A stretch of 64,000 nucleotides of DNA from a virus: positions 27,621-91,620 of the IMG/VR virus record IMGVR_UViG_3300047554_000303; one strand, given 5' to 3'. Below the pieces are notes generated by a model. The model was not told where the DNA came from, searched no databases, and saw nothing but the letters and a program-made list of their open reading frames with translations. A program made the translations under genes and the position numbers. Positions 2,562-21,661 of this stretch are shown one piece after another; position 1 is the stretch's first letter; every line of letters starts with the position of its first letter.

Positions 2562-2603
2562 GATGGTAGTTTCTCACGATTTATAGGGTATTACACTCTA
2601 AAG

Positions 2604-2676
2604 TCCCTGCGGTCAGATTCGAACTGACACTTTTACGATTTTAAGTCGCTTGCCTCTACCGTTGGGCTACGCAGGG
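2604..2676 (-). tRNA. tRNA-Leu(UAA), short variable loop, no encoded CCA
   Basis: Acceptor CCCTGCG/CGCAGGG, anticodon loop CTTAAAA, T arm GTCAG-TTCGAAT-CTGAC, discriminator A. Confidence 0.9.
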
Positions 2677-3418: not shown

Positions 3419-3454
3419 AAAAAGAAACCCCGCTAGTTTTAGTAGCGGGGTCTT
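3419..3454 (-). terminator. Intrinsic terminator
   Basis: ACCCCGCTA/TAGCGGGGT stem followed by TTCTTTTT on the minus strand. Confidence 0.75.
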
Positions 3455-3472: not shown

Positions 3473-3643
3473 TTAGGCGTCTTTGCCCCAGCCTCCGCCC
3501 TTAAAAGTAACGGCTCCAACAGAGAACTTCTTACGACGAGCTATTGCACAAGTAGCGCAGATGATTACTGGGGAATCGGTAATTGGGTGCGAAATCTCAA
3601 CGACTGATTTGCACGTAGGACACTCATACTCGTAGCTAGCCAC
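3473..3643 (-). CDS. FmdB-family zinc-ribbon protein
   Basis: YEYECPTC...CATC...FKGGGW; GTG start after AAAGGAG. Confidence 0.85.
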   Translation of the reverse strand: MASYEYECPTCKSVVEISHPITDSPVIICATCAIARRKKFSVGAVTFKGGGWGKDA

Positions 3644-3659
3644 ATTTCTCCTTTGCACG

Positions 3660-3725
3660 TGGACTGTGTAGGAGTCGAACCTACAACTGGTTGAAAGGAA
3701 ACAAAAGACCCAGCACCCTCAGCCC
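3660..3725 (-). ncRNA. D-armless tRNA-like RNA with G3.U70 pair and an anti-SD loop
   Basis: GGGCTG/CAGTCC acceptor stem plus A; T arm GTAGG-TTCGACT-CCTAC; GCTGG/CCAGT stem closing a U/C-rich loop. Confidence 0.7.
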
Positions 3726-3731
3726 TAGTAA

Positions 3732-3820
3732 ATAGAGGCAGGGACAAGACCGAAGACGTAATCGAAGTTTTTGTTAGATTAATAGGTTAGTTATTAATTT
3801 AACCTTGTCCCTACCGCTAT
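3732..3820 (-). ncRNA. Candidate small structured RNA
   Basis: 12-bp stem GGTAGGGACAAG/CTTGTCCCTGCC enclosing an inner ATTAATA/TATTAAT hairpin. Confidence 0.5.
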
Positions 3821-3825
3821 TTAGT

Positions 3826-4050
3826 TTACTTTACTTCCTCCTCGGCCACATCAACCGATTCAGAAGTGTACCCAGAATACTCCAAAGCGCAGAGAGCGTG
3901 ATACGACACGCTGAAAAACTCTGACGCTTGTGGAAGCAGGTCTAGGACGTAAGCCCCCTCCTTGCCGTAGGTCTGACCCAAGTATTCCTCTAGAGCTGGA
4001 CCGAACACCTCTAGGAAACGGCTTGGGGTCATGGCTTTGTTAATGTCCAT
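3826..4050 (-). CDS. Hypothetical protein
   Basis: TAATG coupling to hsp20. Confidence 0.65.
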   Translation of the reverse strand: MDINKAMTPSRFLEVFGPALEEYLGQTYGKEGAYVLDLLPQASEFFSVSYHALCALEYSGYTSESVDVAEEEVK

Positions 4051-4577
4051 TAGCTAATCTCAATCTGCTTAGGCTTCTTCTCCTCAGGGAGCTCAAGCTC
4101 TAGCTTAATGGTTAGTAGTCCGTCTTCAAGCTTGGCGCTCTTTACCTCAATGTACTCTGCAATAGCAAAGGTAGTGGTGAAGTTACGCTGAGCGATGCCG
4201 TGGTGGATTACCTGACCGTACTGTCCCTCTTCAGGGATGTCGTTGCGGTCTTCGATGTCTGAGCGCACCGTGAGTACACGGTCCTTTACAAACACCTCTA
4301 CTTCTTCCTTCTTGAACCCAGCAAGCGCCATGGTGATGGTGTAGCTGTCACCAGACTTAGTTAGGTTGTATGGAGGGAAGGAAGGCTTGTGCTGTGCTAG
4401 CTCTGTAAGGGTGTTGAACACAGAGTCATAGCCGATACCCCAACGGTCAATGTTGGGAAATAGGGAGTAAATAGTGGCAGGCTTCTGGTCTACTTTAGGT
4501 AAAGTTTTGTAAGGCTGCTTGTTTGGGTAGTGGGCATCCTTGTCCCACGGCTGGATTTCAAATGGATTTCTGGACAT
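4050..4577 (-). CDS. Small heat-shock protein (Hsp20/IbpA-like)
   Basis: FPPYNL...MALAGF...HHGIAQRNF...AKLEDGLLTI...IEI alpha-crystallin motifs. Confidence 0.95.
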   Translation of the reverse strand: MSRNPFEIQPWDKDAHYPNKQPYKTLPKVDQKPATIYSLFPNIDRWGIGYDSVFNTLTELAQHKPSFPPYNLTKSGDSYTITMALAGFKKEEVEVFVKDRVLTVRSDIEDRNDIPEEGQYGQVIHHGIAQRNFTTTFAIAEYIEVKSAKLEDGLLTIKLELELPEEKKPKQIEIS

Positions 4578-4942: not shown

Positions 4943-5010
4943 CACCCCGACTAAGAATCGAACTTAGCAAGACAAGTTTTGGAGGCTCGTCCGTACCCAG
5001 TACTCAAGGC
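4943..5010 (-). tRNA. Atypical tRNA-Trp(CCA) with minimal D arm
   Basis: Acceptor GCCTTGA/TCGGGGT, D arm GTAC-TGG-GTAC, loop CTCCAAA, T arm CTAAG-TTCGATT-CTTAG, discriminator G. Confidence 0.75.
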
Positions 5011-9249: not shown

Positions 9250-9671
9250 TTTCGTTGTTTTAGGCTACTGCCTCAACTGAAAACCCCTCAACCGTGTGTG
9301 AGACCTGGCGCTTACCTGACCGATTTTGCGCCTAACCTTGTCGCTCGTGATAGTTTCGGATTAGCACCGATTCAGTTCGCTCAGTTGGTGTCCCGTGTAA
9401 CGCCACCGCCCGCCACGCCTATGCGTGTCGGGTTGCGTGTGAATTGTTCGCAAACACTTGCGTGTGTGTTCTTACGGCACACGCCCACTAACCATGCCCT
9501 AATCGCTCTCATGCGTGTTAGGCATTGGGTTACGCCTACTCTACGGGGTATGGCGGTATGTGGGTGTGTGCTGTCCCGTATGCCTAGGGGGGCAACCCCC
9601 CTAAAACCCCCCTAGGTGTATGGGGCAGACAATCCCGTATGCCCACTAAACACACACAAAAGGAGACATTT
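9250..9671 (+). promoter_or_regulatory. Divergent control region and hairpin-rich leader of the early operon; possible genome end
   Basis: Strand switch; consecutive hairpins including a 22-bp stem at 9571-9628. Confidence 0.55.
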
Positions 9672-9989
9672 ATGTCCGCTCTACTATCCGCATCGGCTAT
9701 TGCTTCGGCACTATCCGAGTCACCTGAATACAAGGCACTTGTCCTAGCGTTTGAGGCTAAGGCAGCGAAGGCACTTACCGAGGAGTTTCAGGTGAAGTCC
9801 CTAGGTGTCAAGATGACCCTAGCCCGTATTGCTGTCACCTACCAGGTATACAAGGCAGCACCGAAGGCACTAGGCGAGTCAGCACGTGCCTACACCGAGT
9901 CCGTCTCACGTGAGTGCCTAGCCATCATCAAGGCTAACGGCTACAAGGCAGACTGGAACAGCATCGTAGCCCTAGCCCAGCACGCATAA
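9672..9989 (+). CDS. First early protein (hypothetical, helical)
   Basis: AAGGAG RBS, ATG at 9672. Confidence 0.8.
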   Translation: MSALLSASAIASALSESPEYKALVLAFEAKAAKALTEEFQVKSLGVKMTLARIAVTYQVYKAAPKALGESARAYTESVSRECLAIIKANGYKADWNSIVALAQHA

Positions 9990-10148
9990 GGCTACTGCCC
10001 CACACACAAGTGAGCCTAACCCCCTGTATGACCAGCTCATACGGGGGGTGGGCTTGCTGTTATCAGGTGTAAGAGCACTACGGGCACCCCCTAGTCCGTA
10101 GTGTTCTTAGGCTTGATAGCCCTACACACAGGAGAGAAAGGAAGAACT

Positions 10149-10355
10149 ATGTCCCAAATGTCCCTAACCGAGCAGATTGAGATGCTCACCCGTCACAGGG
10201 AAGAACTTCACCAGATGCTTGTGGGAGAGCATGACCTATCCCTAGAGGAAGTCAACAGGGCACTAGTGTCTATGAGAGCCCTTACTAGGGCAATACAGGT
10301 AAGAGAAGCCCGTATGCCCCTAGCAGCGTGGGAGAAAGAGCTACTAGGTATCTAG
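10149..10355 (+). CDS. Early hypothetical protein
   Basis: GAAAGGAA RBS. Confidence 0.75.
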   Translation: MSQMSLTEQIEMLTRHREELHQMLVGEHDLSLEEVNRALVSMRALTRAIQVREARMPLAAWEKELLGI

Positions 10356-10475
10356 TCTCTCTCTATGTAAGTAACACATAAGACCTCCCCCATAGCCAAA
10401 GAGCTAGGGGGGACAAGCCCCCCTAAGACCCCCCAGTGATAGGGGCGTTCTTAGGACAACCCGAAAGGATAAGCA

Positions 10476-10640
10476 ATGACAGTCACAGTCACCATAGTCA
10501 CAAGGTATGAGATAGACATACCTGAGCTAGATAACAACACCCGTAAGTACATCACCGATAACTATGAAGCAGCAAGCCTGCCTTACGAGTATCAAGATGC
10601 CGAGTATGTAGACGGCAGTATCACCTATGAGGAGAACTAA
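10476..10640 (+). CDS. Early hypothetical protein (54 aa, acidic)
   Basis: GAAAGGA RBS; MTVTVTIVTRYEIDIPE... Confidence 0.7.
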   Translation: MTVTVTIVTRYEIDIPELDNNTRKYITDNYEAASLPYEYQDAEYVDGSITYEEN

Positions 10641-10771
10641 TGACCGTAGATAAGAACGCCGAAGGTGCGTGGCGTGTAAGTGACATCATCGGTGGCTATC
10701 TAGTTACCAAGGTGTACTACGAGTACACCAAGCGTGAAGCAATCAAGCGATTCAAGGAGGAATACAAGTGA
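10640..10771 (+). CDS. Early hypothetical protein (43 aa)
   Basis: TAATG coupling; MTVDKNAEGAWRVSDIIGGYL... Confidence 0.7.
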   Translation: MTVDKNAEGAWRVSDIIGGYLVTKVYYEYTKREAIKRFKEEYK

Positions 10772-11055
10772 GAGTAAGAGGCGAGATTCAGTGTGATGCG
10801 TGTAGCACATACTGTGACCAAGACCCTATCGCAGTTATGGGAGCCTATTCCATACCTGAGAAGGTGGTAAGCGAGAAGGTAAAGGCAGAACTTGCGTGGT
10901 TCTGGCTATGTAGCGACTGTAAAGAAGACGTTACAGGTATTGAAGATTGGTTTACCCACGAGTATCTAACAAGTGTTCCATGCGATGAGTGTGGAGACCC
11001 TGGCATGTATGACGAAGACGCAGGTAAGAACCTGTGTGATGACTGCTGGGCATAA
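10768..11055 (+). CDS. Early double zinc-finger protein
   Basis: Four CxxC pairs. Confidence 0.7.
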   Translation: MRVRGEIQCDACSTYCDQDPIAVMGAYSIPEKVVSEKVKAELAWFWLCSDCKEDVTGIEDWFTHEYLTSVPCDECGDPGMYDEDAGKNLCDDCWA

Positions 11056-11068
11056 GAAAGGAAAACAA

Positions 11069-11284
11069 ATGAACAAGCTATACAAGCGTATTATGAACCG
11101 CCTAGCTGATGACCTTATCTCTAAGGCATACCTAGAAGGCTACAACCTAGGGCTAGCAAGAGGGGCGAACAGCGAGCGTAACCGCCTAGCTAACAAGCTA
11201 GAGAACCTAGAGATTGAGAAGTTCAACAACACAGGTGTAACCCTTGGGTATTACACCGCATTAGAGCTAGTCAAGGAGGACTAA
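11069..11284 (+). CDS. Early hypothetical protein
   Basis: GAAAGGAAA RBS, ATG at 11069. Confidence 0.75.
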   Translation: MNKLYKRIMNRLADDLISKAYLEGYNLGLARGANSERNRLANKLENLEIEKFNNTGVTLGYYTALELVKED

Positions 11285-11578
11285 GTGATACCAAAGAGCG
11301 TGTTCATTCACACTAAGCGTTGGCGTGACAAAGTAAATGGGCAGAGTTATTTCGCATCCCGTATTGAAGTAGGCACAGCTAACTACCTGTTCGTGCCGTT
11401 TCAGTATGGGTATGAGAGTGCTGACCTAGACGCAGCAGTCAAAGTATTACAGCAGGCAGGGTATGAGGTAGAGCGTAAGCACTTCAACACTAGCCAAGCA
11501 CCGTTTGACCACTACTACGCCAGTGAGTGGACAACCAAGAGAGAAACCAAGCGTTTCGGAGAGGACTTCAGCGGATGA
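11285..11578 (+). CDS. Early hypothetical protein
   Basis: AGGAGG RBS; WRDKVNGQSYF...PFQYGY. Confidence 0.75.
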   Translation: MIPKSVFIHTKRWRDKVNGQSYFASRIEVGTANYLFVPFQYGYESADLDAAVKVLQQAGYEVERKHFNTSQAPFDHYYASEWTTKRETKRFGEDFSG

Positions 11579-11667
11579 TTTTCTATAACGGGTTCAACCT
11601 ACTAGTAGACCTAGTGCTAGTAGCAATCACAGCAGTAATCGCATACAAGATGGGAGCAAGCAGATGA
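11575..11667 (+). CDS. Single-TM micropeptide (30 aa)
   Basis: ATGA coupling at both ends; hydrophobic core. Confidence 0.55.
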   Translation: MIFYNGFNLLVDLVLVAITAVIAYKMGASR

Positions 11668-11825
11668 GCACGAACGAATACCGTCTGACTACTGAGCAGG
11701 AGGAAGTATTACAGGATGTAATAGCCGAGAAGCTAGAGGAAGACTACGCCAAGCACAGTGTGCTACACCCTGTGTTTGAAGCAATCATTGGCAGATGGAA
11801 GCCAACGTATGAGGAGGATAACTAA
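11664..11825 (+). CDS. Early hypothetical protein (53 aa, acidic)
   Basis: Coupled to both neighbours. Confidence 0.65.
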   Translation: MSTNEYRLTTEQEEVLQDVIAEKLEEDYAKHSVLHPVFEAIIGRWKPTYEEDN

Positions 11826-12031
11826 TGGGTAGAGAAGTTCACTTTGTTATCGCAGTAGATGTAGATAACAACACCGTGTCCATAGATGATGACACTTACG
11901 CAGCTAAGTTTGATTACTCCCAAGGTTATTACGACACCGACAAAGAGCAATGGTTTGAAGATGAAGACCGCATCTTGTATGACTTAGCACTAGGCATACT
12001 CAACAACAAAGCACAACTAGAAAGGGAATAA
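11825..12031 (+). CDS. Early acidic hypothetical protein
   Basis: ORF track; GGAGG RBS. Confidence 0.7.
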   Translation: MGREVHFVIAVDVDNNTVSIDDDTYAAKFDYSQGYYDTDKEQWFEDEDRILYDLALGILNNKAQLERE

Positions 12032-12034
12032 CAA

Positions 12035-12238
12035 GTGGCATACGGACCAAGAGTTCTAGAGGAACTCACTAGGCAGTACACATACCTACACGACAAGACC
12101 TTTAGCAAAGGTGTGAACCTTTGGTATGGGGAAGCAGGCAGTGACTTCAAGGTAGCAGAGATGATACTTGAGGGTAACAACCTAAGTGTTGTAGAGCAGT
12201 ACTTGATTGACAACTATGGAGAGGGAGACGATGACTAG
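12035..12238 (+). CDS. Early hypothetical protein
   Basis: ORF track. Confidence 0.65.
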   Translation: MAYGPRVLEELTRQYTYLHDKTFSKGVNLWYGEAGSDFKVAEMILEGNNLSVVEQYLIDNYGEGDDD

Positions 12239-12554
12239 CATTACCGACAAGCTCAGTGAGCTTGATGAATACCTAGAAGAAGCAAAAGGTATCGCTTGGG
12301 ATAACTGCCACAAGATTTACATCATGATGGATAACCAAGAGGTAGAACAGATGCGTAAGTATGGGTATGACCCACTTATTACATCAGACGAGATGACACC
12401 AGCAGAGATGCTAGGCACAGTACTCAAGTGGTACAACGATTCATGTGGACTCAAGTTCATAGATATAACAAGCACTACGGATACAGGTACTGAGTTCTAT
12501 GCCCTAGTGCCGCAGTTCTTTGCTGATGAAGATGAGGAGGAAGACGATGAGTGA
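12231..12554 (+). CDS. Early acidic hypothetical protein
   Basis: GGAG RBS; IAWDNCHKIY motif; poly-D/E tail. Confidence 0.75.
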   Translation: MTSITDKLSELDEYLEEAKGIAWDNCHKIYIMMDNQEVEQMRKYGYDPLITSDEMTPAEMLGTVLKWYNDSCGLKFIDITSTTDTGTEFYALVPQFFADEDEEEDDE

Positions 12555-12690
12555 AGCAGTTTACAGCGTGTGGGTAGGTGGGGTAGAAGCTAACGATTAC
12601 TACCTGACTGAAGAGTTTGCTAAGCAGTTGGCAGACCTGTTCATACATGACGGCTACATAGATGTACTAGTAACTAAGGAAACCAAATGA
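12547..12690 (+). CDS. Early hypothetical protein (47 aa)
   Basis: MSEAVYSVWVGGVEANDYYL...; coupled. Confidence 0.65.
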   Translation: MSEAVYSVWVGGVEANDYYLTEEFAKQLADLFIHDGYIDVLVTKETK

Positions 12691-12920
12691 GTGAGCGTGT
12701 TACATACGTTGATTACCAATGGAAAGACTCAGATGTACCAGGTGACACCAGTGCGTTGGTAGTGATACTCAATGACTGTGGTAAGTATGAGCAGATGGTA
12801 GAAGACGAAGCTTATGATGCACGTGTCTGGTTCTACTTCCAAGATGAAGCAGAGTTTCAACGTGCCTTTGACCCAAGCTCAGATGAGTTTGAGTTCGTAC
12901 TAACAAATGAGAGGAAATAA
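12687..12920 (+). CDS. Early acidic hypothetical protein
   Basis: ORF track; AAGGA RBS. Confidence 0.7.
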   Translation: MSERVTYVDYQWKDSDVPGDTSALVVILNDCGKYEQMVEDEAYDARVWFYFQDEAEFQRAFDPSSDEFEFVLTNERK

Positions 12921-12922
12921 CA

Positions 12923-13450
12923 ATGGGAACAAGAGGGCTGACAGTAGTCACCTATAACAATGAAGTACGTGTAGCACAGTATGGACAGTGGGACCACTAC
13001 CCTGCTGGACAAGGTGTTACAGCTCTAGAGTTCTTGCGTAACCCTGAGAACGTAGAGCAACTACGCAAGAACATGGACAAGTGCTACTGGATTCCACAAG
13101 ACAGACACGAAGCTCTTATTGGTGAGTTCTCTAGCTCAGACAAGTCGGGGTGGATGACCTTTGAAGAGGGCAAAGCATTTGGGGAAGCATACCCAAGCCT
13201 TACTCGTGACACTGGTGCAGAGATTCTGTATGTAATTGCAGAAGCAACTGAGCCTGTGCCACTAGTCAACGAGTATGAGTTCAGTAAAGATGAGCTGATG
13301 TGTGAGGGCATCTACTCAGTAGACCTTGACCGCAACACGTTCATCAGTGAGTACGCCCCGTATCCAACAAAGGTGTATGACCTAGACAACCTGCCTACAA
13401 GGGAAGACTACCTTGCAGCGTTCAAAGAAGAGGAAGAAGTAAATGCCTAA
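12923..13450 (+). CDS. Early hypothetical protein (MGTRG...QYGQWDHYP type)
   Basis: ORF track. Confidence 0.75.
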   Translation: MGTRGLTVVTYNNEVRVAQYGQWDHYPAGQGVTALEFLRNPENVEQLRKNMDKCYWIPQDRHEALIGEFSSSDKSGWMTFEEGKAFGEAYPSLTRDTGAEILYVIAEATEPVPLVNEYEFSKDELMCEGIYSVDLDRNTFISEYAPYPTKVYDLDNLPTREDYLAAFKEEEEVNA

Positions 13451-14018
13451 CTGGTGTGAGAATGAGGTAGAGATTACCTTTGAGAGTAAAGCAGAGTATG
13501 ACAAGTTCATTACACAAGCTGGGGTAGATGAAAGCACTAGCCCTTACCTTGAGTATGACAACGAGAAGAATGGCTATGGGTTCTTCGACAGGTTCTTGCC
13601 TACCCCACCTGAGATGCTAGAAGGTGAGGGCTGGTGGAGCTGGCGCATCAGTAACTGGGGCACCAAGTGGAACCCTAACTTCAACAAGTTTGAGACGGAT
13701 GATGATGCCCTAACGATAAGCATGGACATGTCTACGGCATGGGCACCACCCATTGAGTTCTTCACTACGTTCACTGAGCTCTTCTCTAGTGCAATCGTAA
13801 AGCTTGCGTACCTAGAAGAAGGCATGGGCTTCTGTGGTAAAGCAGAGTTCTATCAAGGGTCAGTTGAAGACAACTACCTCAACGAGATACCTACCTCCAT
13901 GTACGTAGCAGCAGGTGCCACACTCAATGCTGATGGAGAGATTGACTGGGATGAAGACCAGAACTATAACCTGTGGGAAGTTATCAACGACTCAGAACGA
14001 TTCGACGAGTTCGTGTAA
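13443..14018 (+). CDS. DUF1281/YubB ferredoxin-like domain protein
   Basis: MPNWCEN...W..WRISNWGTKW...TAWAPP...Y.EEGMGFCG. Confidence 0.8.
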   Translation: MPNWCENEVEITFESKAEYDKFITQAGVDESTSPYLEYDNEKNGYGFFDRFLPTPPEMLEGEGWWSWRISNWGTKWNPNFNKFETDDDALTISMDMSTAWAPPIEFFTTFTELFSSAIVKLAYLEEGMGFCGKAEFYQGSVEDNYLNEIPTSMYVAAGATLNADGEIDWDEDQNYNLWEVINDSERFDEFV

Positions 14019-14069
14019 CAGACACCAACAAGCGTGACATGAGAGTGGAGAGGCTCTCCTGATTACGAA

Positions 14070-14105
14070 ACAAAGCCTAGGTCAGTGTGTGTACCTAGGC
14101 TTTGT
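14070..14105 (+). terminator. Long hairpin: terminator or RNase III-type processing site
   Basis: ACAAAGCCTAGGT/ACCTAGGCTTTGT 13-bp perfect stem. Confidence 0.55.
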
Positions 14106-14146
14106 CGTAGGGTAATGACCCTACCTGATGAGTAAAGGAAAGCAGT

Positions 14147-14482
14147 ATGGAAACAGTAACCATTACCCGTACGATTGATGCCGTTGAGTTCTGGTCAAGC
14201 ATCATGGGTAGCACAGAGTTCATGGGTGAACAATGGCTCAAGGTCAAGTACCACGGTGAGTCTGACTGGGATAAGCCAGGCAGCGTAACTATCACCGCTG
14301 ACAATGGTGAGGAAGAAATATCCAAGACACTAACCATTGAAGACCTAGTACAGGCATACGAAGCTGTAATAGCTAAGCCGTACTACCACTGTGGTGGCAC
14401 AGTTGACATCGACAACATGGATGAGTGTGCGAGTGACATCGTGCTACAGCAGGCGGTGTTCGGAGATGTTATCTATGGGTAA
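14147..14482 (+). CDS. Early acidic hypothetical protein
   Basis: AAAGGAAA RBS; ends D..LQ.AVFGDVIYG. Confidence 0.75.
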   Translation: METVTITRTIDAVEFWSSIMGSTEFMGEQWLKVKYHGESDWDKPGSVTITADNGEEEISKTLTIEDLVQAYEAVIAKPYYHCGGTVDIDNMDECASDIVLQQAVFGDVIYG

Positions 14483-14666
14483 GCGATGGCTCAAGCTAGT
14501 GCCGAGTCGCTGGGCAGGGCGTGGCCAACACAAACAAAACAACGATGAACACGTAACGATTAGGGTAAGCACCTTGCACCTAATCATTCGTGAGACATAC
14601 AACATGGGCAGAGAGGATGAACGTAATGAGTCGCAAAGTAACAGTGACCTACACAGTCACGTATGA
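14475..14666 (+). CDS. Hypothetical protein
   Basis: GGAG RBS; overlaps neighbours. Confidence 0.5.
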   Translation: MGKRWLKLVPSRWAGRGQHKQNNDEHVTIRVSTLHLIIRETYNMGREDERNESQSNSDLHSHV

Positions 14667-14829
14667 CCTACGCAAAGGTGATGTAGGTAGAGATTACGTA
14701 GAGTGGCTAGACGGCTACAGAGACAATAAGGGACTTCGTAGTTGGTTTGTAATAGACCGTTTCGTTGGTCACGACAACCTACAACTGTTTGACCCTAAGG
14801 CTAAGCTCCGCATAACAGAGGAGAAGTAA
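14626..14829 (+). CDS. Hypothetical protein
   Basis: ORF track with start trimmed. Confidence 0.6.
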   Translation: MSRKVTVTYTVTYDLRKGDVGRDYVEWLDGYRDNKGLRSWFVIDRFVGHDNLQLFDPKAKLRITEEK

Positions 14830-15086
14830 TGACACATGCACACACAGAGACACGAACAACCGAAAGCTCACGTGGCTGGTCACTGCACTGTACTGAGTGT
14901 AACGAGTACCTAGGCTTTGAAGATAAACCACCTGTGTACTCAGTGTTCGTAAATGGTTGGGAAGGTTCAATGAGGGTGTGGTATGCACCTGAGTTTGAGA
15001 CACCAGAAGAAGCACAGACTTGGCTAGACAACCAAGGCGAATGGGACGAAGGCCGTCCTTACGTTGAAGAGGTATACAACTACTAG
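14829..15086 (+). CDS. Hypothetical protein with CxxC
   Basis: TAATG coupling. Confidence 0.65.
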   Translation: MTHAHTETRTTESSRGWSLHCTECNEYLGFEDKPPVYSVFVNGWEGSMRVWYAPEFETPEEAQTWLDNQGEWDEGRPYVEEVYNY

Positions 15087-15098
15087 AAAGGAAACACC

Positions 15099-15248
15099 AT
15101 GTACCACGCAGATGATGACATGAATGACCTTTACGAGTTCATGCGAGAAGAAGCTACGGCTCGTGAAGAGGATGCCAATTACGAAAGTGACTCATCCGAT
15201 ACGGAAGAACTAGCAACCGCCAAAAGCATGCACCGAGAGGACTACTAA
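15099..15248 (+). CDS. Small acidic protein (49 aa)
   Basis: GAAAGGAAACA RBS. Confidence 0.65.
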   Translation: MYHADDDMNDLYEFMREEATAREEDANYESDSSDTEELATAKSMHREDY

Positions 15249-15424
15249 TGAACACCTATGAAGTAACCGTAGTAGAGAAGATTAAACACACTGTTGAGGT
15301 AGAAGCACTCAACGAAGACGAAGCCTTGACCAAAGGCTATGACATTGTCATGAACGGCCCTGAGGATGAGTATGACTCAGAGTCCCAAGGCAGTGCCGAA
15401 TCATACGTACTAAGAATCAACTAA
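15248..15424 (+). CDS. Small acidic protein (DpnD/PcfM-like pattern)
   Basis: YEVTVVE....VEVEA.NEDEA pattern. Confidence 0.6.
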   Translation: MNTYEVTVVEKIKHTVEVEALNEDEALTKGYDIVMNGPEDEYDSESQGSAESYVLRIN

Positions 15425-15445
15425 CACGAAAGAAAAGGAAACCAC

Positions 15446-16846
15446 ATGTACGCAACACTAATCCTTAGCCAGTCCCCGTACGGTGTACGCCAGACTGCTA
15501 TCATCCCTACCACCAACAACGGTGTACGTATCTTGCACAGATGCGGCTTCGGTCGTGGCCTAGCTGCAACTTGGAGCGAAGCTTACCCAGATGCAGAAGC
15601 ACTACAAGAGTATGTACTCAATGCACCTGTGTCACTAGCTATGACTCCAGCTCATGTACGTGACGCTGATGTCATGGCTCGTACTCCTAACAACGTACTG
15701 CAAGCACTAGGTAAGCGACTAGCCACAGCGTTCGTCCCTAGCAACTCCACTCTAGGTGAGCTATTAGACAATGTACTAGCCGCTTGTTCTACTAACCCTG
15801 CATCACTAGCCAAGTATGCACACAAGCAGTCAGTGACTGTGACTGTCCCTTCAGTAGCACCTGCACCACACCCTGTGACAGTGAGCGTCCACTACCCACA
15901 GACTAATGAGGTAGTACAAGAGCAGCTCACTCCGACTGCACCTGTAACCGAAGAGGTAATCAACATGGCTACACCTGCACCACAGCCAGCCACAGTTACT
16001 GTGACTAACCGCTCGCTCAACACCTTGAACATCCCAGACGTTGAGCCGTACTTTGAGCGTTCGTTCGAAGACATCTCTGAGTCACGTATCTATGACTCTG
16101 CACGTAAGAACCAGTGGAATGTACTACTGACTGGTGATGCTGGTACAGGCAAGACATCATCTGCCCGTAACTATGCAGCACAGCGCAAGCTCCCATTCGT
16201 AGTCATCGAATGTACTCAACAGATTGACAACAGCATTACTCAGGGTCGCTTCGTACCTGCTGAGGACGGCACGTCTATCAAGTGGGTGTACTCACAGCTA
16301 GCCACTGCTATCCAGCAGCCTTCGGTCATCTTGCTCAATGAGTTGACCCGTATGTCTCCCAAGTCATCCTCACTGTTCCTTCGCCTCATCTGGGAGCGTG
16401 AGCTATTGATTGAGCCATTCAACGAGGTTATCAAGGTACACCCAGAGTGCTTGTTCATTGCTGATGCCAACGTAGGTAACAACTACAGCGGTACCATGCG
16501 ACAGGACGGCGCACTGCTTGACCGCTTTGCTATCAAGCTTCCGTTCAGTTACGACGCTGAGCTTGAGGCCAAGTTCATCCCGTACCCTGCACTGCTAGGC
16601 TTTGCCACTGGTATCCGTACTGCGACCGAGCTAGGTCAGGAAGACTTCACTGTCCCACTGTCCACTCGTTTGCTACAGACCTTCGTAGCACAAGTCAAGG
16701 AGTTCAGTTGGAGCTTCGCTGTCCAACGTCTGCTGTCCAACTTCCCTACCGACACTGGTGAGCGTGACGCTATCAAGCTTCGTATCGATGCTGACGCACC
16801 ACGTATTGCTCGTGAGTTCGGTGTTGACTTAGCACCTACTGCCTAA
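15446..16846 (+). CDS. MoxR/CbbQ/CobS-like AAA+ ATPase
   Basis: Walker A GDAGTGKT, Walker B ILLNE, ALLDRF. Confidence 0.88.
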   Translation: MYATLILSQSPYGVRQTAIIPTTNNGVRILHRCGFGRGLAATWSEAYPDAEALQEYVLNAPVSLAMTPAHVRDADVMARTPNNVLQALGKRLATAFVPSNSTLGELLDNVLAACSTNPASLAKYAHKQSVTVTVPSVAPAPHPVTVSVHYPQTNEVVQEQLTPTAPVTEEVINMATPAPQPATVTVTNRSLNTLNIPDVEPYFERSFEDISESRIYDSARKNQWNVLLTGDAGTGKTSSARNYAAQRKLPFVVIECTQQIDNSITQGRFVPAEDGTSIKWVYSQLATAIQQPSVILLNELTRMSPKSSSLFLRLIWERELLIEPFNEVIKVHPECLFIADANVGNNYSGTMRQDGALLDRFAIKLPFSYDAELEAKFIPYPALLGFATGIRTATELGQEDFTVPLSTRLLQTFVAQVKEFSWSFAVQRLLSNFPTDTGERDAIKLRIDADAPRIAREFGVDLAPTA

Positions 16847-16872
16847 TCTAGAATAAACCTGAGGAGGTTATT

Positions 16873-18648
16873 GTGGCTATCACCGTATACAACAATCAAG
16901 TAGACAAAGAATCTGTGCAGCGCATCTACGCTGCCAAGTTGCAGCAGAGCTTTGGCAAGTTTGCTCGTGCAATTGCTTTGCGAGACATCTCTGTGTCTAT
17001 CGTCCCGCAACAGAGAGGGCTTCAGCCAGCACCTGCATGGAGCACAGACAACGGTCTGGTAGTTACTTACGACCAGAGCAAAGGGAGTGTGCTTGCTGCA
17101 AACAACCTGCTGCGACTCAAGGGCTTGGTCATTCATGAGCTATCTCACCTATTGTTTACGCCACGTAGTTTGACTGGTCTAGTCAAGTGGGTGCACGCAC
17201 AGAACTACGGCTCCTCGTTCAACATTCTTGAGGACAATCGTATTGAGAACATGATGGTAGCCAAGATGTCTGGTATTGCACCATGGCTAGTACACACTGT
17301 TGCAACAGAGTTACTGGCTGCCAGCAACCCAGACTTGCTTCCGCTTGTATGGGGTCGCAAGTATCTTGACTCCAACATCCGACTGCTTGCTCGTGATGAG
17401 TGGGCTAAGAAGTATGGTGCTGAGAATGCTGCTGAGGTGTGCAAGTATCTGGACAGATACGTACAGCTCAACCTTGGTGACACTAAGAACTACACAGAAG
17501 CACAGGAGATTATTGCTGCGTTCCACACACTGTGTCAGTTGGCTGCTCCCACCTCTTCCCTTCATGGTCAGTCTTCATCTGCTCCTGAGAGCAATGGTGA
17601 GAAGCCTGAGTCACGTAGTGAGCAAGGCAAGCTACTCAAGCAGGTCGACATGTCTGAGCCTGAAGAAGATGAGTCAACTGCTGTGCACACATCCTCTGAC
17701 TCGGAAGACACAGAGGACACTCCATCGTTGACTAAGCAACTACAGCGTGTTGCTGACGAGGCTTATACTGAGGTGTTAGAGGATGTAAAGAACACCATTG
17801 CTAACGTACGTAATGATGACGGTGTTGGCGAGGTACATGACCACGACAATGACAGGGGCAAAGGTAGGAGTGTGGTCAACATGCCGAGCTGGTCTTGGAG
17901 AAAGATTTACCCTTCTGCCGTTAGCATTCAAGCATCACGTAGGTTTGCTAATGAGCTTATCAATCTCAAGGCTGAGCATGACCCAGGTTGGTTGCGCAAG
18001 ACCAGCCAAGGCAAGGTCAATGTTCGACAGTTCATGCAGGGTGCTGACTTTGACGAGATGTTTGACCAGTGGTCTGAGGGCAACCAAGATGTCAGTGACA
18101 TTGAGTGTGTGGTTCTTGTAGACAGCTCTGGTTCAATGCACGACATGCTGACCCCTGCTTACGAAGCTATGTGGACAATCAAGCGTGCACTAGATAGCAT
18201 CAACGCTAGTACAACTGTTATACAGTTTGCTGACATGGGTGGTTGGCTATACAAAGCTGACGAGCGTGCACAGACATACATCAAGACTGCGCCTAGTGGT
18301 GTCGGCGGCTCTACCTACCCGTTCTCTAGTCTCAAAGCTGCCAAAGAAATCCTGACTAACTCTCCACGTGCAATCAAGCTGCTGCTTGTTGTTACTGACG
18401 GTGCATGGGGTAGCCCACAAGCATGCGACCAGTTGATTACTGGTATGCGTACATCGGGAGTACTGACAAGCCTCGTGTTCTTGACTGAACCTTCTGAGAA
18501 CATTCCTTACTACCTCCGCTCAGTTGATGGCGGCATAGCTGTTGACGGACACAAGTGTGAGTTCGTACAACACCTTACCAACCCACTAGAGATTGTTGAC
18601 GTAGCCAAAGCGATTACCAAGCGTGCACAACGTGCGCTTCTTGTATAG
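16873..18648 (+). CDS. CobT-like HExxH plus VWA domain protein
   Basis: IHELSH, NILEDNRIE, MIDAS DSSGS...TDG. Confidence 0.85.
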   Translation: MAITVYNNQVDKESVQRIYAAKLQQSFGKFARAIALRDISVSIVPQQRGLQPAPAWSTDNGLVVTYDQSKGSVLAANNLLRLKGLVIHELSHLLFTPRSLTGLVKWVHAQNYGSSFNILEDNRIENMMVAKMSGIAPWLVHTVATELLAASNPDLLPLVWGRKYLDSNIRLLARDEWAKKYGAENAAEVCKYLDRYVQLNLGDTKNYTEAQEIIAAFHTLCQLAAPTSSLHGQSSSAPESNGEKPESRSEQGKLLKQVDMSEPEEDESTAVHTSSDSEDTEDTPSLTKQLQRVADEAYTEVLEDVKNTIANVRNDDGVGEVHDHDNDRGKGRSVVNMPSWSWRKIYPSAVSIQASRRFANELINLKAEHDPGWLRKTSQGKVNVRQFMQGADFDEMFDQWSEGNQDVSDIECVVLVDSSGSMHDMLTPAYEAMWTIKRALDSINASTTVIQFADMGGWLYKADERAQTYIKTAPSGVGGSTYPFSSLKAAKEILTNSPRAIKLLLVVTDGAWGSPQACDQLITGMRTSGVLTSLVFLTEPSENIPYYLRSVDGGIAVDGHKCEFVQHLTNPLEIVDVAKAITKRAQRALLV

Positions 18649-18660
18649 AGAGGAATACAA

Positions 18661-18804
18661 ATGAATACAGAGCCAGAATACTATTGCATCTTCTGTGAAG
18701 ACTATGTAATGAACATCGACATGGCTATGAAGTGCTTACAATGTGGTGAGTACAAAGGGCTGGTCAAGGTCGGCCCAACACAAACAAATGGAGAGGATAA
18801 CTAA
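18661..18804 (+). CDS. Small zinc-finger protein
   Basis: CIFC...CLQCGEYKG. Confidence 0.65.
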   Translation: MNTEPEYYCIFCEDYVMNIDMAMKCLQCGEYKGLVKVGPTQTNGEDN

Positions 18805-18998
18805 TGAACCGCTATGAAGTACACGTACACGTTGTCTACAAGATAGACGCCGCATCGCTAGAGGATGCCTACCGCAAGATTAACGAGGGTGCCGAGTTCC
18901 CTGTCTTGCCTTACGACGATAATACTTATTGTGACGCTGTTGTTATTACAGACATTAAACAGTTGAGTGAAGCAGAACTATCAGAGGAGACAGTGTGA
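18804..18998 (+). CDS. Hypothetical protein
   Basis: Coupled ORF. Confidence 0.65.
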   Translation: MNRYEVHVHVVYKIDAASLEDAYRKINEGAEFPVLPYDDNTYCDAVVITDIKQLSEAELSEETV

Positions 18999-19288
18999 GC
19001 CTGTATTACGGAGTCAATGGAGAACCAATCACCTTAGAACAATGGGGTGAGATTATGGAGGATGTTGAGCAGAAAGTAGTTAAGCAAGACAGAGTAAATG
19101 GATTACTGGTGTCTACAGTTTGGCTTGGCATGAACCACAACTTCGGAGAAGGAGAGCCTCTTATTTACGAGACCATGGTTTTCCCAGAAGGTAGTTGGGA
19201 AGAGATGTACATGGAAAGGTACACCACCCGTGAGCAAGCAATCGCTGGGCATGAGGTAGCGTTGGAATGGACAAAGGAGCAGAAGTGA
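18995..19288 (+). CDS. Hypothetical protein
   Basis: VSTVWLG.NH...YETMVF...RY.T...A.AGH; ends KEQK. Confidence 0.75.
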   Translation: MSLYYGVNGEPITLEQWGEIMEDVEQKVVKQDRVNGLLVSTVWLGMNHNFGEGEPLIYETMVFPEGSWEEMYMERYTTREQAIAGHEVALEWTKEQK

Positions 19289-19395
19289 GTGAGGCAACTC
19301 AAATGTCAGACGGTCAAGACTGGACTGAACCAATCAAGTTGACCGCCGCTGAGTGGGAGCAGTTGAACGAAGCGTTAGAGGGAGAGCAGAAGTGA
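19285..19395 (+). CDS. 36-aa cassette ORF ending GEQK
   Basis: GTGA coupling at both ends; GGAGAGCAGAAGTGA tail. Confidence 0.55.
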   Translation: MSEATQMSDGQDWTEPIKLTAAEWEQLNEALEGEQK

Positions 19396-19610
19396 GTGTA
19401 GAGAGCATTATCAACAACCCACCAAAGGTATTTACAGAGCCTTGCGAGGCTTGCGGAGTAAGTGAGTTTCAGCTAGGCGTCAGCCACGCAGAAGAACGCA
19501 TTATCAAGTTGCTAGAAAAAGAAGCAAAAGGCTTCAACTTCATTAGAAATTTTTATGCGGAAGCCATAACTAGCGAACTAATTGGCAAAATCAAAGGAGA
19601 GCAGAAGTGA
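19392..19610 (+). CDS. Cassette ORF with ERIIKLLE...IKGEQK module
   Basis: Module shared with 5764-6069. Confidence 0.7.
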   Translation: MSVESIINNPPKVFTEPCEACGVSEFQLGVSHAEERIIKLLEKEAKGFNFIRNFYAEAITSELIGKIKGEQK

Positions 19611-19792
19611 GAGAGACATGGATGGGGTCAGGGGTCAACAGTACAATAAAGCTGTTTCACGTTACCTGCCCAAATTGTGATACCGAATGGGCAGATGATT
19701 TTTATGTAGACGATTGGGGCAATGTAGAAGAAGAGATTAAATGCTACAAATGCAATGAGCCGTTTACGTTTACACATTACAAAGGAGAGTAA
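19607..19792 (+). CDS. Small zinc-ribbon protein
   Basis: CPNC...CYKC. Confidence 0.7.
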   Translation: MRETWMGSGVNSTIKLFHVTCPNCDTEWADDFYVDDWGNVEEEIKCYKCNEPFTFTHYKGE

Positions 19793-19794
19793 GA

Positions 19795-20109
19795 ATGGCA
19801 AGAACGAAAAAACCAGTTGACCGTCAAGCAGTCACTATCATCCAGGTGAAAGACCCTCTGTGTGCTCAGACTGACCCTGAGATGTTCTTCCCGTCCGACA
19901 GCAAGGGAGACGGGTACACCACCACCAAGTACGCAAAGGACATTTGCGCCCAGTGCGATTACACAGTGCAGTGCCTTATTACAGCAATAATGAATAAAGA
20001 AGAGTATGGCATTTGGGGAGGCTCTAGCCCAAGAGACCGCCGAGCTATCAAGACTAGAACTCAGGCAATAACCTTCGTGAAGAAGTTAAAAGACGAACGC
20101 AAGAAGTAG
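19795..20109 (+). CDS. whiB: WhiB-family transcription factor
   Basis: CAQTDPEMFF...C..C.....C...EEYGIWGG. Confidence 0.93.
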   Translation: MARTKKPVDRQAVTIIQVKDPLCAQTDPEMFFPSDSKGDGYTTTKYAKDICAQCDYTVQCLITAIMNKEEYGIWGGSSPRDRRAIKTRTQAITFVKKLKDERKK

Positions 20110-20173: not shown

Positions 20174-21661
20174 TTAGTCTTCTATAGAAGTCTTTATAAT
20201 TCGGGTGGTTTGCTCCTCATTTAGAGGCTGTTCCATCTCCTTTAAGACGCTTGCTCGGTCACCGAAAATAGCGCTCAAAACACCTCCGCTAGTCTCTCTA
20301 CTAGCAGTGATTTGGACGAACTCTTTATTACTCTCCAAGTCCTTCATGTTTGCTATGAGCTTGAACAATCTGTCCACCTCTTGCGACACGTTCGGGTCAG
20401 CGTAGCCACCGTTCAATTCCTCTGCATACCGCATAAACATTACCCTCTGGCCTTGCATCTCTATTACAGATGTCAATAGGTCTTTGAGCTGTTCCTTAGT
20501 CTTTACCTCTACTGGCAAGTTAAATGCGCACATGTTATCTGGCTTAAATGCAGGGCAATTTGCGGCCACAAAACAGGTATTACACTGCCTTAACGACGCT
20601 TGTTGCGAACGCACTACGGGCACATCTCTGAGGGTATCGTCAGCGTCTACAATCGTCTTAGATTCGAACCCAAAAACAGGTAGATTAACCTTTTCGGAGG
20701 GGTCTCTAGGTTCTACTTTTTTCCGCACTTCCATGTCCCTGTTATTAGAAGGGGTAGTGTCGAAATCCATCAAACCCGTATATAGGGGTCCCTCGTTGTT
20801 ATCTGCTAACATCTCCTCTAATGAGGGCAGTCCACCTTTTATAACACGTAGGTCTGGCTTATTCTTATCCATTTTTGCCTCTAACTGTAGGTACGACCAG
20901 ACTGCAACTTTGGTCGCCTCTGTCGTATCGTCGTTTACGAACTTATCAAAATCTAACCCTGCTTGTGCTACTACGTTCTTATACCGTAGACGAGCTTGGT
21001 CTTTCATTTTCTTTGGGTATCGAACTAGCTTCGTGCCGTCCCATACAATCGTCTCTCCTCGTCGCATGGGCGATGTCCACGCCAGTGTGCTGGCAGTATC
21101 AAATGGAATCTGGCGTAGGTTATCTGGCTTGGCTGTGGCTAGGGCATGAAACTTTACGTCATTCTGCGCCTTGGCATTACGAACTAATCCTGACAACGAC
21201 GTTACCTTTTCTATGGCATCGCCAGGTATCGCTACGTTTGCGTACTCCTGCGCCCAGTCTCTCAATAACAACGTGTTATACGTTTGGTGCCATACAACCC
21301 ACATCTTTGGGTCATTCTGGAATGCGGCTCTGTTCTGGATTATCTTGGGCAGTCCCCAGACTTGGGAATCGAACTCTACCCAACCCTCTATTCTGTCGTA
21401 GTTTAGGGCTACGAACTCCTCGTAGTTTGCGGCATACTCCTCCAGCTCACGCTGTGATAATCCTGCTTTGTCTGCTTGGGTTGCTCCGCTGTCTACCCAC
21501 ACTTTCATGTGGGGCAAAAAATGCTCACCGATTAAATACGCCTTGGTCTTTGGTAAACCTCGTTTACACAATCCCCAGTAATTCAACATCACGTTGGTAA
21601 CACCACTGCGCTCCAACATGGTGCGGTTACTTGGAATCTCTACGCCACCGAAAATAATCAA
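20174..21661 (-). CDS. tRNA-guanine-transglycosylase-like (TGT/DpdA-like) TIM barrel fused to a C-terminal Cys-cluster/helical domain
   Basis: VWVDSGA, FHALA and FDTASTLAW resemble the DSG, H.(L/F)G and DS.SW motifs of phage TGT-like proteins; C-terminal CNTC..NCP..MC. Confidence 0.5.
   Translation of the reverse strand: MIIFGGVEIPSNRTMLERSGVTNVMLNYWGLCKRGLPKTKAYLIGEHFLPHMKVWVDSGATQADKAGLSQRELEEYAANYEEFVALNYDRIEGWVEFDSQVWGLPKIIQNRAAFQNDPKMWVVWHQTYNTLLLRDWAQEYANVAIPGDAIEKVTSLSGLVRNAKAQNDVKFHALATAKPDNLRQIPFDTASTLAWTSPMRRGETIVWDGTKLVRYPKKMKDQARLRYKNVVAQAGLDFDKFVNDDTTEATKVAVWSYLQLEAKMDKNKPDLRVIKGGLPSLEEMLADNNEGPLYTGLMDFDTTPSNNRDMEVRKKVEPRDPSEKVNLPVFGFESKTIVDADDTLRDVPVVRSQQASLRQCNTCFVAANCPAFKPDNMCAFNLPVEVKTKEQLKDLLTSVIEMQGQRVMFMRYAEELNGGYADPNVSQEVDRLFKLIANMKDLESNKEFVQITASRETSGGVLSAIFGDRASVLKEMEQPLNEEQTTRIIKTSIED

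Follow-up and report, generated by a model that had tools for sequence, protein, structure and literature searches.

The locus and its transcription unit

The stretch of DNA analysed here (the window, 64,000 nt) comes from an IMG/VR record of 91.6 kb that is complete and has direct terminal repeats. Among its genes are those for a tail sheath, a baseplate, a DNA polymerase and a helicase, which points to a myovirus-type phage. It has no close isolate: by the helicase, the closest ones are Streptomyces phages that are only 36% identical. Near-identical DNA occurs in freshwater, sediment and rhizosphere metagenomes, and a separate DNA search returned nothing except a tRNA-like 50-mer common to Acinetobacter phages. 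The complete 91.6-kb genome was searched for tmRNA (by model search), SmpB, integrase and Ro60, and none of them was found.

The subject of this work is a 66-nt element of the minus strand (Table 1). All its neighbours lie on the same strand, in the order Hsp20 gene, 74-aa ORF (p74), long hairpin, element, zinc-ribbon gene and terminator-like hairpin. Neither the vicinity of the element nor the interval between it and the upstream genes showed a sigma-70-like promoter, so that the element is probably transcribed within the Hsp20/p74/zinc-ribbon unit. In one sequencing run labelled metatranscriptomic, which is probably DNA, coverage is confined to part of the Hsp20 gene. The genes recognised beside the element include none for defence or counter-defence.

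Table 1 Features of the locus discussed in the text (window coordinates)
Feature	Position	Strand	Context or basis
Hsp20 gene	4577..4050	minus	upstream, co-oriented
74-aa ORF (p74)	4050..3826	minus	upstream, co-oriented
Conserved long hairpin, 20-bp stem, A/U-rich interior of about 60 nt	3729..3823	minus	directly 5' of the element
Anticodon-less alanine-type tRNA-like RNA, 66 nt (the element)	3660..3725	minus	sequence, fold, orthologues, covariance model
Weak 5-bp stem with 19-nt U-rich loop (3691-3709)	3686..3714	minus	minimum-energy fold
Loop core UUCCUUUC, 8 nt	3693..3700	minus	sole internal block common to the orthologues' loop
T arm, stem 5-6 bp (GUAGG/CCUAC), loop UUCGACU	3667..3685	minus	fold and alignment
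Small hairpin of the element's 3' end with the start of the next gene	3640..3662	minus	predicted fold
Zinc-ribbon gene (FmdB-like, PF09723), 56 aa	3473..3643	minus	co-oriented; starts 17 nt after the element
Intrinsic-terminator-like hairpin with U run	3425..3453	minus	ends the Hsp20/p74/RNA/zinc-ribbon unit

Other features of the window deserve mention. Like Hsp20, a queuine tRNA-ribosyltransferase-like gene (PHROG 887, 20174-21661, minus) and an ATPase gene matching PHROG 249, a family labelled porphyrin biosynthesis (15446-16846, plus), are auxiliary genes; the former presumably hints at 7-deazaguanine DNA modification. A 68-nt tRNA-Trp-like element (4943-5010, minus) combines a CUCCAAA-type loop with a good T arm, and its acceptor contains three G.U pairs. 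The 3' two-thirds of this second element are 87-91% identical to an Acinetobacter myophage stretch that is annotated as tRNA-Trp in three records; neither ARAGORN nor the Rfam tRNA model calls it, and it does not fold as a cloverleaf.

Anatomy of the 66-nt element

The RNA sequence reported in an earlier reading, made from the letters alone (hereafter the sequence-only reading), is exact from 3725 to 3660. Its acceptor stem has 6 bp, joining 3725-3720 with 3666-3661 (positions 1-6 with 60-65), and includes G3.U70 at 3723/3663; the seventh acceptor position is an A.A mismatch and the discriminator A73 (3660) is unpaired. The interval between acceptor and T arm measures 34 nt and contains neither a D stem nor a 7-nt anticodon loop, and the CCA is not encoded at the 3' end. 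Sequence and fold thus bear out the canonical T arm, the G3.U70 and A73 and the missing D stem described in that reading. Its loop of ~19 nt fared less well: it appears in the minimum-energy fold, but the 5-bp stem that closes it is weak and missing from the centroid, and the fold is no better than those of shuffled sequences (z -0.87). The core of this loop, UUCCUUUC, is complementary to Shine-Dalgarno sequences of the GAAAGGAA type.

As the sequence-only reading had expected, no normal tRNA was called here by either ARAGORN or Rfam at the gathering score, each of which found a single tRNA-Leu(UAA) in the window (2603-2676). Under permissive settings the Rfam tRNA model RF00005 gave the element 18 bits against a gathering score of 29, matching the T arm and the 3' acceptor only. 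An ordinary tRNA-Ala was rejected on these results and on the lack of a 7-nt anticodon loop. Two other identities were also rejected. A phage attachment site copying the 3' end of a tRNA or tmRNA does not agree with the presence of both acceptor strands, and the complete genome has no PF00589 match; for a mimic of the YrlA-type Y RNAs, which would go with Ro60, there is no TROVE match and no RF02553 match at the locus, and the acceptor ends are free.

Building a covariance model from related phages had been proposed as a check of the earlier claim. Such a model, based on the 80-nt orthologues described below, recovers the element at 32 bits (E about 3e-8 locally). The element also occurs in contigs of two other metagenomes, which are about 96-99% identical to the window over its stretch and have no listed difference within 3660-3725. 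Counted over their whole length, these contigs show 31 differences from the window in 921 positions and 11 in 513; about 2 would be expected by chance in 66 nt, so that this identity is weak evidence of constraint. Given its score under the orthologue model and its copies in two other metagenomes, the element is not a chance look-alike.

Orthologues of 80 nt in related phages

Relatives of the locus were sought by an Hsp20 protein search of IMG/VR and by a search of IMG/VR and metagenomes with the upstream hairpin, resulting in five related loci; the metagenome scan with the hairpin added two relatives, plus one chance match. Four of the five loci (L087=L002, L111, L113 and L107=L004) carry an 80-nt version of the element at the same place. 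The fifth, L110=L003, lacks precisely the element, the hairpin being joined directly to the Shine-Dalgarno sequence, and the element is therefore dispensable. Among the four contigs the 80-nt versions have 95-100% identity, against 66-94% for the zinc-ribbon gene and 55-97% for the upstream ORF. This excess of RNA identity over that of the flanking genes is the mark of strong purifying selection on the whole 80-nt RNA, helix and loop included.

In the folded 80-nt form, a 7-bp acceptor is followed by an unpaired UGG-containing linker of 10-11 nt and a bulged hairpin of 10 bp that closes a 14-nt loop, and a linker of 3 nt then leads to the T arm. The minimum-energy and centroid predictions agree on this tRNA-like fold (z -1.97), which is retained when downstream sequence is added. 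L107 is a natural variant in which the bulge has moved and 9 of the 10 hairpin pairs are kept. A pattern combining the loop core with the T arm matched only two already known relatives. When bacterial and archaeal genomes were searched, the specific pattern had no match and the loose one returned essentially ordinary tRNA-Ala genes. Two matches to the alanine acceptor/T-loop pattern in Micromonosporaceae MAGs (L248:4269-4338 and L288:4674-4743) measure 70 nt, shorter than a normal tRNA-Ala, and may represent this class on the chromosome or in a prophage.

The window copy is an outlier in this family. It is 14 nt shorter than the 80-nt form and 64% identical to it, and its flanks are 67-91% identical. 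Two automatic alignments disagree on where the missing letters were, one placing two deletions on either side of the loop and the other a single 17-nt deletion of the D-loop stand-in. The structure-aware alignment favors the two flanking deletions: the window copy lacks both strands of the inner 6-bp stem and retains the loop core. Its linker has 5 nt and is followed by a weak 5-bp stem, versus 10-11 nt and a 10-bp hairpin in the orthologues. Both members of one T-stem pair have changed relative to the orthologues (G-C to A-U), the seventh acceptor position no longer pairs, and the copy folds poorly in its context (z +1.27). Its divergence, the broken pair and the poor folding indicate either a short-helix variant or a partly eroded copy; with the inner helix and most of the D-loop stand-in lost, any remaining function may be that of a bare alanine minihelix.

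One possibility is therefore that the family is functional and that the window's copy, having lost the helix and the D-loop stand-in, is a decaying remnant that drifts. Its low identity to orthologues that hardly differ among themselves would fit this scenario, as would the broken seventh pair, the weak folding and the dispensability of the element in L110. Nevertheless, the T arm and 6 acceptor pairs are intact, the altered T-stem pair has changed on both sides, the two deletions remove exactly both strands of one stem while leaving the loop core, and the contigs of the two other metagenomes list no differences, although with about 2 expected this last point is a weak one. We regard decay of the window's copy as improbable. 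A decayed ordinary tRNA, which the sequence-only reading had itself named as the result that would overturn it, is rejected for the family as a whole; partial erosion could still apply to the window's copy.

Flanking hairpins and a possible processing signal

The long hairpin upstream of the element is present in 6/6 relatives, including the one without the tRNA-like RNA, and 3 of its pairs covary. Its G.U pairs fit the minus strand only, and an invariant stretch, CUUC.AUUACGUCUUC, lies in its interior. In most comparisons the flanking genes are less conserved than this hairpin, which matches no Rfam family. On the other side of the element, CCACGU from its 3' end is predicted to pair over 6 bp with A(U/C)GUGG, which holds the GUG start codon of the zinc-ribbon gene, leaving the Shine-Dalgarno sequence AAAGGAG (3648-3654) in the hairpin loop. 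This start-codon hairpin is predicted in the window, L087 and L107, and the same letters occur in L111 and L113; a C-to-U change in the window leaves a G.U pair. The relative that lacks the element, L110, has an ATG start and no start-codon hairpin.

These surroundings suggest an alternative in which the element acts as an RNA-processing and translation-control signal instead of a trans-acting RNA. In this scheme RNase P and the 3' tRNA-processing enzymes, recruited by the tRNA-like fold, would cleave the polycistronic transcript. The long hairpin would be left as a protective end on the Hsp20/p74 mRNA, and the zinc-ribbon mRNA would gain a short leader with its GUG start freed from the small hairpin. 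The loop might in addition pair in cis with the adjacent AAAGGAG. Several observations agree with this proposal. No promoter-like site was found upstream of the element and the terminator comes only after the zinc-ribbon gene; the element sits between the conserved 20-bp hairpin and the Shine-Dalgarno sequence of the next gene; the start-codon hairpin is predicted in three carriers, with the same letters in two more, and the relative without the element lacks that hairpin; and the minimum-energy fold of the window copy in a 196-nt context pairs the loop with the downstream Shine-Dalgarno sequence. Moreover, in a related 77-nt family (L060 and L097) the next ATG follows the tRNA-like RNA by 4 nt and has no Shine-Dalgarno sequence.

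Yet a bare signal would not need the near-invariance of the 80-nt orthologues over the whole hairpin and loop, and in those orthologues the tRNA-like fold beats any pairing of the loop with the Shine-Dalgarno sequence. The loop core and this sequence are both invariant, which leaves no covariation test of their pairing, and every Shine-Dalgarno sequence of the genome is complementary to the loop. Processing and translation coupling thus appears unlikely, but it stays the main rival to the explanation preferred below, since the core survived divergence, the loop could pair in cis with AAAGGAG and the start-codon hairpin is predicted.

The L060/L097 loci also show a separate feature: in L060:7640-7760 and L097:11120-11240 a TATAAT box precedes the RNA, whose first G follows about 7 nt later. 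The sequence suggests that these RNAs would have their own promoter and that a near-leaderless downstream mRNA would result from processing.

Complementarity of the loop to Shine-Dalgarno sequences

The sequence-only reading had proposed that the loop is an anti-Shine-Dalgarno device directed at the early ribosome-binding sites (RBSs) of the phage. The RBS matches it listed are all present: 11 nt at 15086-15096, 9 nt at 11056-11064 and 15434-15442, and 8 nt at 10136, 12676 and 14134. The genes concerned belong to a plus-strand block (9298-20109) of about 30 small genes, nearly all with a purine-rich Shine-Dalgarno sequence in many variants, which diverges from minus-strand genes on both sides and is presumed to be the early region. 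To be meaningful, such matches have to exceed what any loop of this kind would give, and they do not. With UCCUU fixed and the other loop letters shuffled (n=1000), genes with a match of 8 nt or more number 6 against a mean of 3.4 in the shuffles (p 0.17), and the longest match gives p 0.08; for the loop of the relatives the same test gives p 0.6 for gene number and 0.59 for longest match. A model 16S tail matches the RBSs about as well as the loop, and on either strand the 5-mers with the highest enrichment ahead of predicted starts are of the Shine-Dalgarno type (AAGGA, GAGGA, AGGAG). As for the conservation of the loop, which had also been suggested as a check, the orthologues have only the 8-nt core in common with the window, and the loops of more distant homologues are unrelated. 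Because the complementarity is generic, the shuffle p values are as given and only the core is shared, the idea that the loop is aimed at early RBSs is unsupported.

The broader version of that idea, a stable tRNA-scaffolded RNA silencing early or host mRNAs with GAAAGGAAAC-type leaders, is accordingly hard to sustain and we judge it very unlikely. It can appeal to the reality of the six matches in the plus-strand block, one of them of 11 nt, to the sharing of the core, and of no other internal block, by the 66-nt and 80-nt forms, and to an unrelated element, L057, whose loop also contains CCUCC. Against it, shuffled loops that keep UCCUU match about as often, the motifs in question are the most enriched ones ahead of predicted starts on both strands, with many variants in the plus-strand block, the loops of distant homologues are unrelated while the helix beneath them covaries, genes are labelled early by position only, and an RNA sponge of this sort would have to rival the number of ribosomes.

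The pyrimidine-rich loop, whose core resembles the 3' tail of 16S rRNA, could still be the working part on a tRNA-like scaffold, pairing with Shine-Dalgarno sequences either in cis or in trans; we consider this quite doubtful. The cis version would couple translation of the zinc-ribbon gene to tRNA-type processing of the transcript, and in the trans version the loop would act on a subset of phage or host mRNAs. If true, such a reading would represent a new kind of translational regulator on a tmRNA-like chassis.

The L057 element (L057:1199-1263) is a 65-nt alanine-type mini-RNA from another phage. The UUCCUCC of its hairpin loop is anti-Shine-Dalgarno-like, which may be a coincidence.

Relationship to tmRNA and a wider class of phage RNAs

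G3.U70 and A73 form the AlaRS identity set (PMC3968760). The tRNA-like domain (TLD) of tmRNA has a reduced, stemless D-loop that can contact the T loop and is followed by helix H2 at the place where tRNA has its anticodon or variable region (PMC3968760). The 80-nt form was compared with this architecture by means of the tmRNA model RF00023, which is its best clan match, with 16 bits (E 5e-5 in a 151-nt search) versus a gathering score of 47; the window copy has no match to this model. The 77-nt L050/L070 family provides an intermediate. It has the same architecture as the 80-nt form, with 16/20 of the first 20 nt identical, and scores 33-34 bits with RF00023 (E about 1e-10) and 49-51 bits with the orthologue-built model. 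The TLD-only RNA of phage DS6A scores 43 bits with RF00023 and 31 bits with the orthologue-built model, the latter being no higher than the 31.3 bits that this model gave to one ordinary tRNA. The orthologues have a degenerate version of the tmRNA D-loop signature UUCGAC...GGAC, and the window copy has none. A search for the D-loop stand-in pattern gave, among the matches listed, only chance ones except for the L050 family. There is no mRNA-like domain with resume codon and tag ORF, as only 34 nt separate the acceptor from the T arm. By covariance score, then, the RNA falls outside the tmRNA family, whereas it resembles that family in architecture and through an indirect chain of sequence similarity.

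G3.U70 and A73 are invariant in all the orthologues and in 10 superfamily members. Across these 10, the T stem is paired in 98% of cells, and the middle helix is paired in 93% with changes on both sides in 10/10 pairs, a count that leans towards structure because both the fitting of the alignment to the model and the choice of members by an acceptor pattern favour it. More distant homologues keep a helix at the middle position under unrelated loop sequences. A loose acceptor/T-loop pattern matched 60 loci in IMG/VR, corresponding to 45 distinct elements: 18 of them are callable tRNAs, mostly tRNA-Ala, and the other 27 have no anticodon arm and are callable neither as tRNA nor as tmRNA. Some of the uncalled elements lie in tRNA arrays, others between protein genes like the element of the window. 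The orthologues and this wider phage class uphold the earlier description of the element as a tRNA-Ala/tmRNA-like mini-RNA distinct from an ordinary tRNA.

Proposed function

The explanation that we prefer, with about even confidence, is that the locus is a phage gene for an anticodon-less alanine-type tRNA-like RNA, kin of the TLD-only (CDS-less) tmRNA-like mini-RNAs such as that of DS6A. The element is a new, somewhat degenerate member of this known class. DS6A supplies the functional precedent: its TLD-only RNA inhibits tmRNA in E. coli, according to Mao et al. 2009 as cited in PMC4131195 and PMC11915505. From the anatomy and this precedent, the most likely targets would be SmpB, EF-Tu or AlaRS. 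The RNA would be transcribed within the Hsp20/p74/zinc-ribbon unit, RNase P would release its 5' end, the 3' end would be trimmed and the host CCA-adding enzyme would supply the CCA. Once charged with alanine by the host AlaRS, it would engage the factors that bind the top half of tRNA (SmpB, EF-Tu, AlaRS). The outcome could be that host trans-translation is damped, or that stalled ribosomes are rescued without a tag.

Alternatively, the RNA could be a decoy or sink that draws off host factors whose substrate is the tRNA acceptor end, such as acceptor-targeting toxins or AlaRS, and not the trans-translation machinery. Its anatomy, an intact alanine acceptor/T minihelix without the decoding part, would suit such a role. 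On the other hand, no defence or counter-defence gene was recognised beside it, and known anticodon nucleases, which the sequence-only reading had in mind, would find no target in it. A decoy of this kind has only a slim probability.

Anticodon-less alanine-type mini-RNAs appear common in uncultivated phages, with a predicted alanine-accepting role, and DS6A is the only example found in the literature consulted and the only one assayed (in E. coli). Well-anchored families can help to show whether such RNAs block or replace host ribosome rescue and which of their parts are selected. The present clade is a natural series, in which the element occurs at 80 nt, occurs at 66 nt with the inner helix missing, or is absent altogether, as in one relative, and its unusually conserved loop could separate a function of the minihelix only from one that depends on the loop.

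Comparison with known systems

Natural RNAs with a tRNA-like fold inside a longer transcript are known in eukaryotes. mascRNA at the 3' end of MALAT1 (RF01684) resembles the present RNA in this respect, and in both cases RNase P could define the ends. The mascRNA system is eukaryotic, however, and RF01684 gives the 80-nt form 16.5 bits, far below threshold.

The acceptor/T-arm coaxial helix with G3.U70 and A73 is that of tRNA-Ala and of synthetic alanine minihelices. A minihelix with these two elements is sufficient for alanylation, as reported by Hou and Schimmel 1988 (cited in PMC3968760) and by minihelix work cited in PMC9976931. The present RNA differs in coming from a natural gene and in having an additional hairpin, and the D arm, the anticodon arm and an encoded CCA are all missing from it.

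The CDS-less tmRNAs of jakobid mitochondria and Mallomonadaceae plastids likewise consist of little beyond the tRNA-like domain (about 65 nt in plastids) and are presumed to act with SmpB without adding a tag (PMC11915505). These organellar RNAs are traceable to full tmRNAs and co-occur with SmpB, whereas the homology of the phage RNA to tmRNA is only indirect.

The closest parallel is the TLD-only tmRNA of DS6A (JN698994: 28478-28560; PMC4131195, PMC11915505). It differs from the present RNA in that it keeps the tmRNA sequence signature and has an RF00023 score far above that of the 80-nt orthologues, the window copy having no match at all. The window copy is in addition shorter than its own orthologues and deprived of the inner helix. 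The present RNA probably forms part of a transcript that also codes for proteins, and the loop on its capped helix is pyrimidine-rich and conserved. These differences notwithstanding, the DS6A RNA and the 80-nt form are both phage-encoded, about 80 nt long and without a tag ORF, the DS6A RNA and the present element both go uncalled by tRNA finders of the ARAGORN type, and the DS6A RNA and the 80-nt form share a 7-bp acceptor with G3.U70 and A73, an unpaired stand-in for the D-loop, a short capped helix in place of helix 2, and a T arm.
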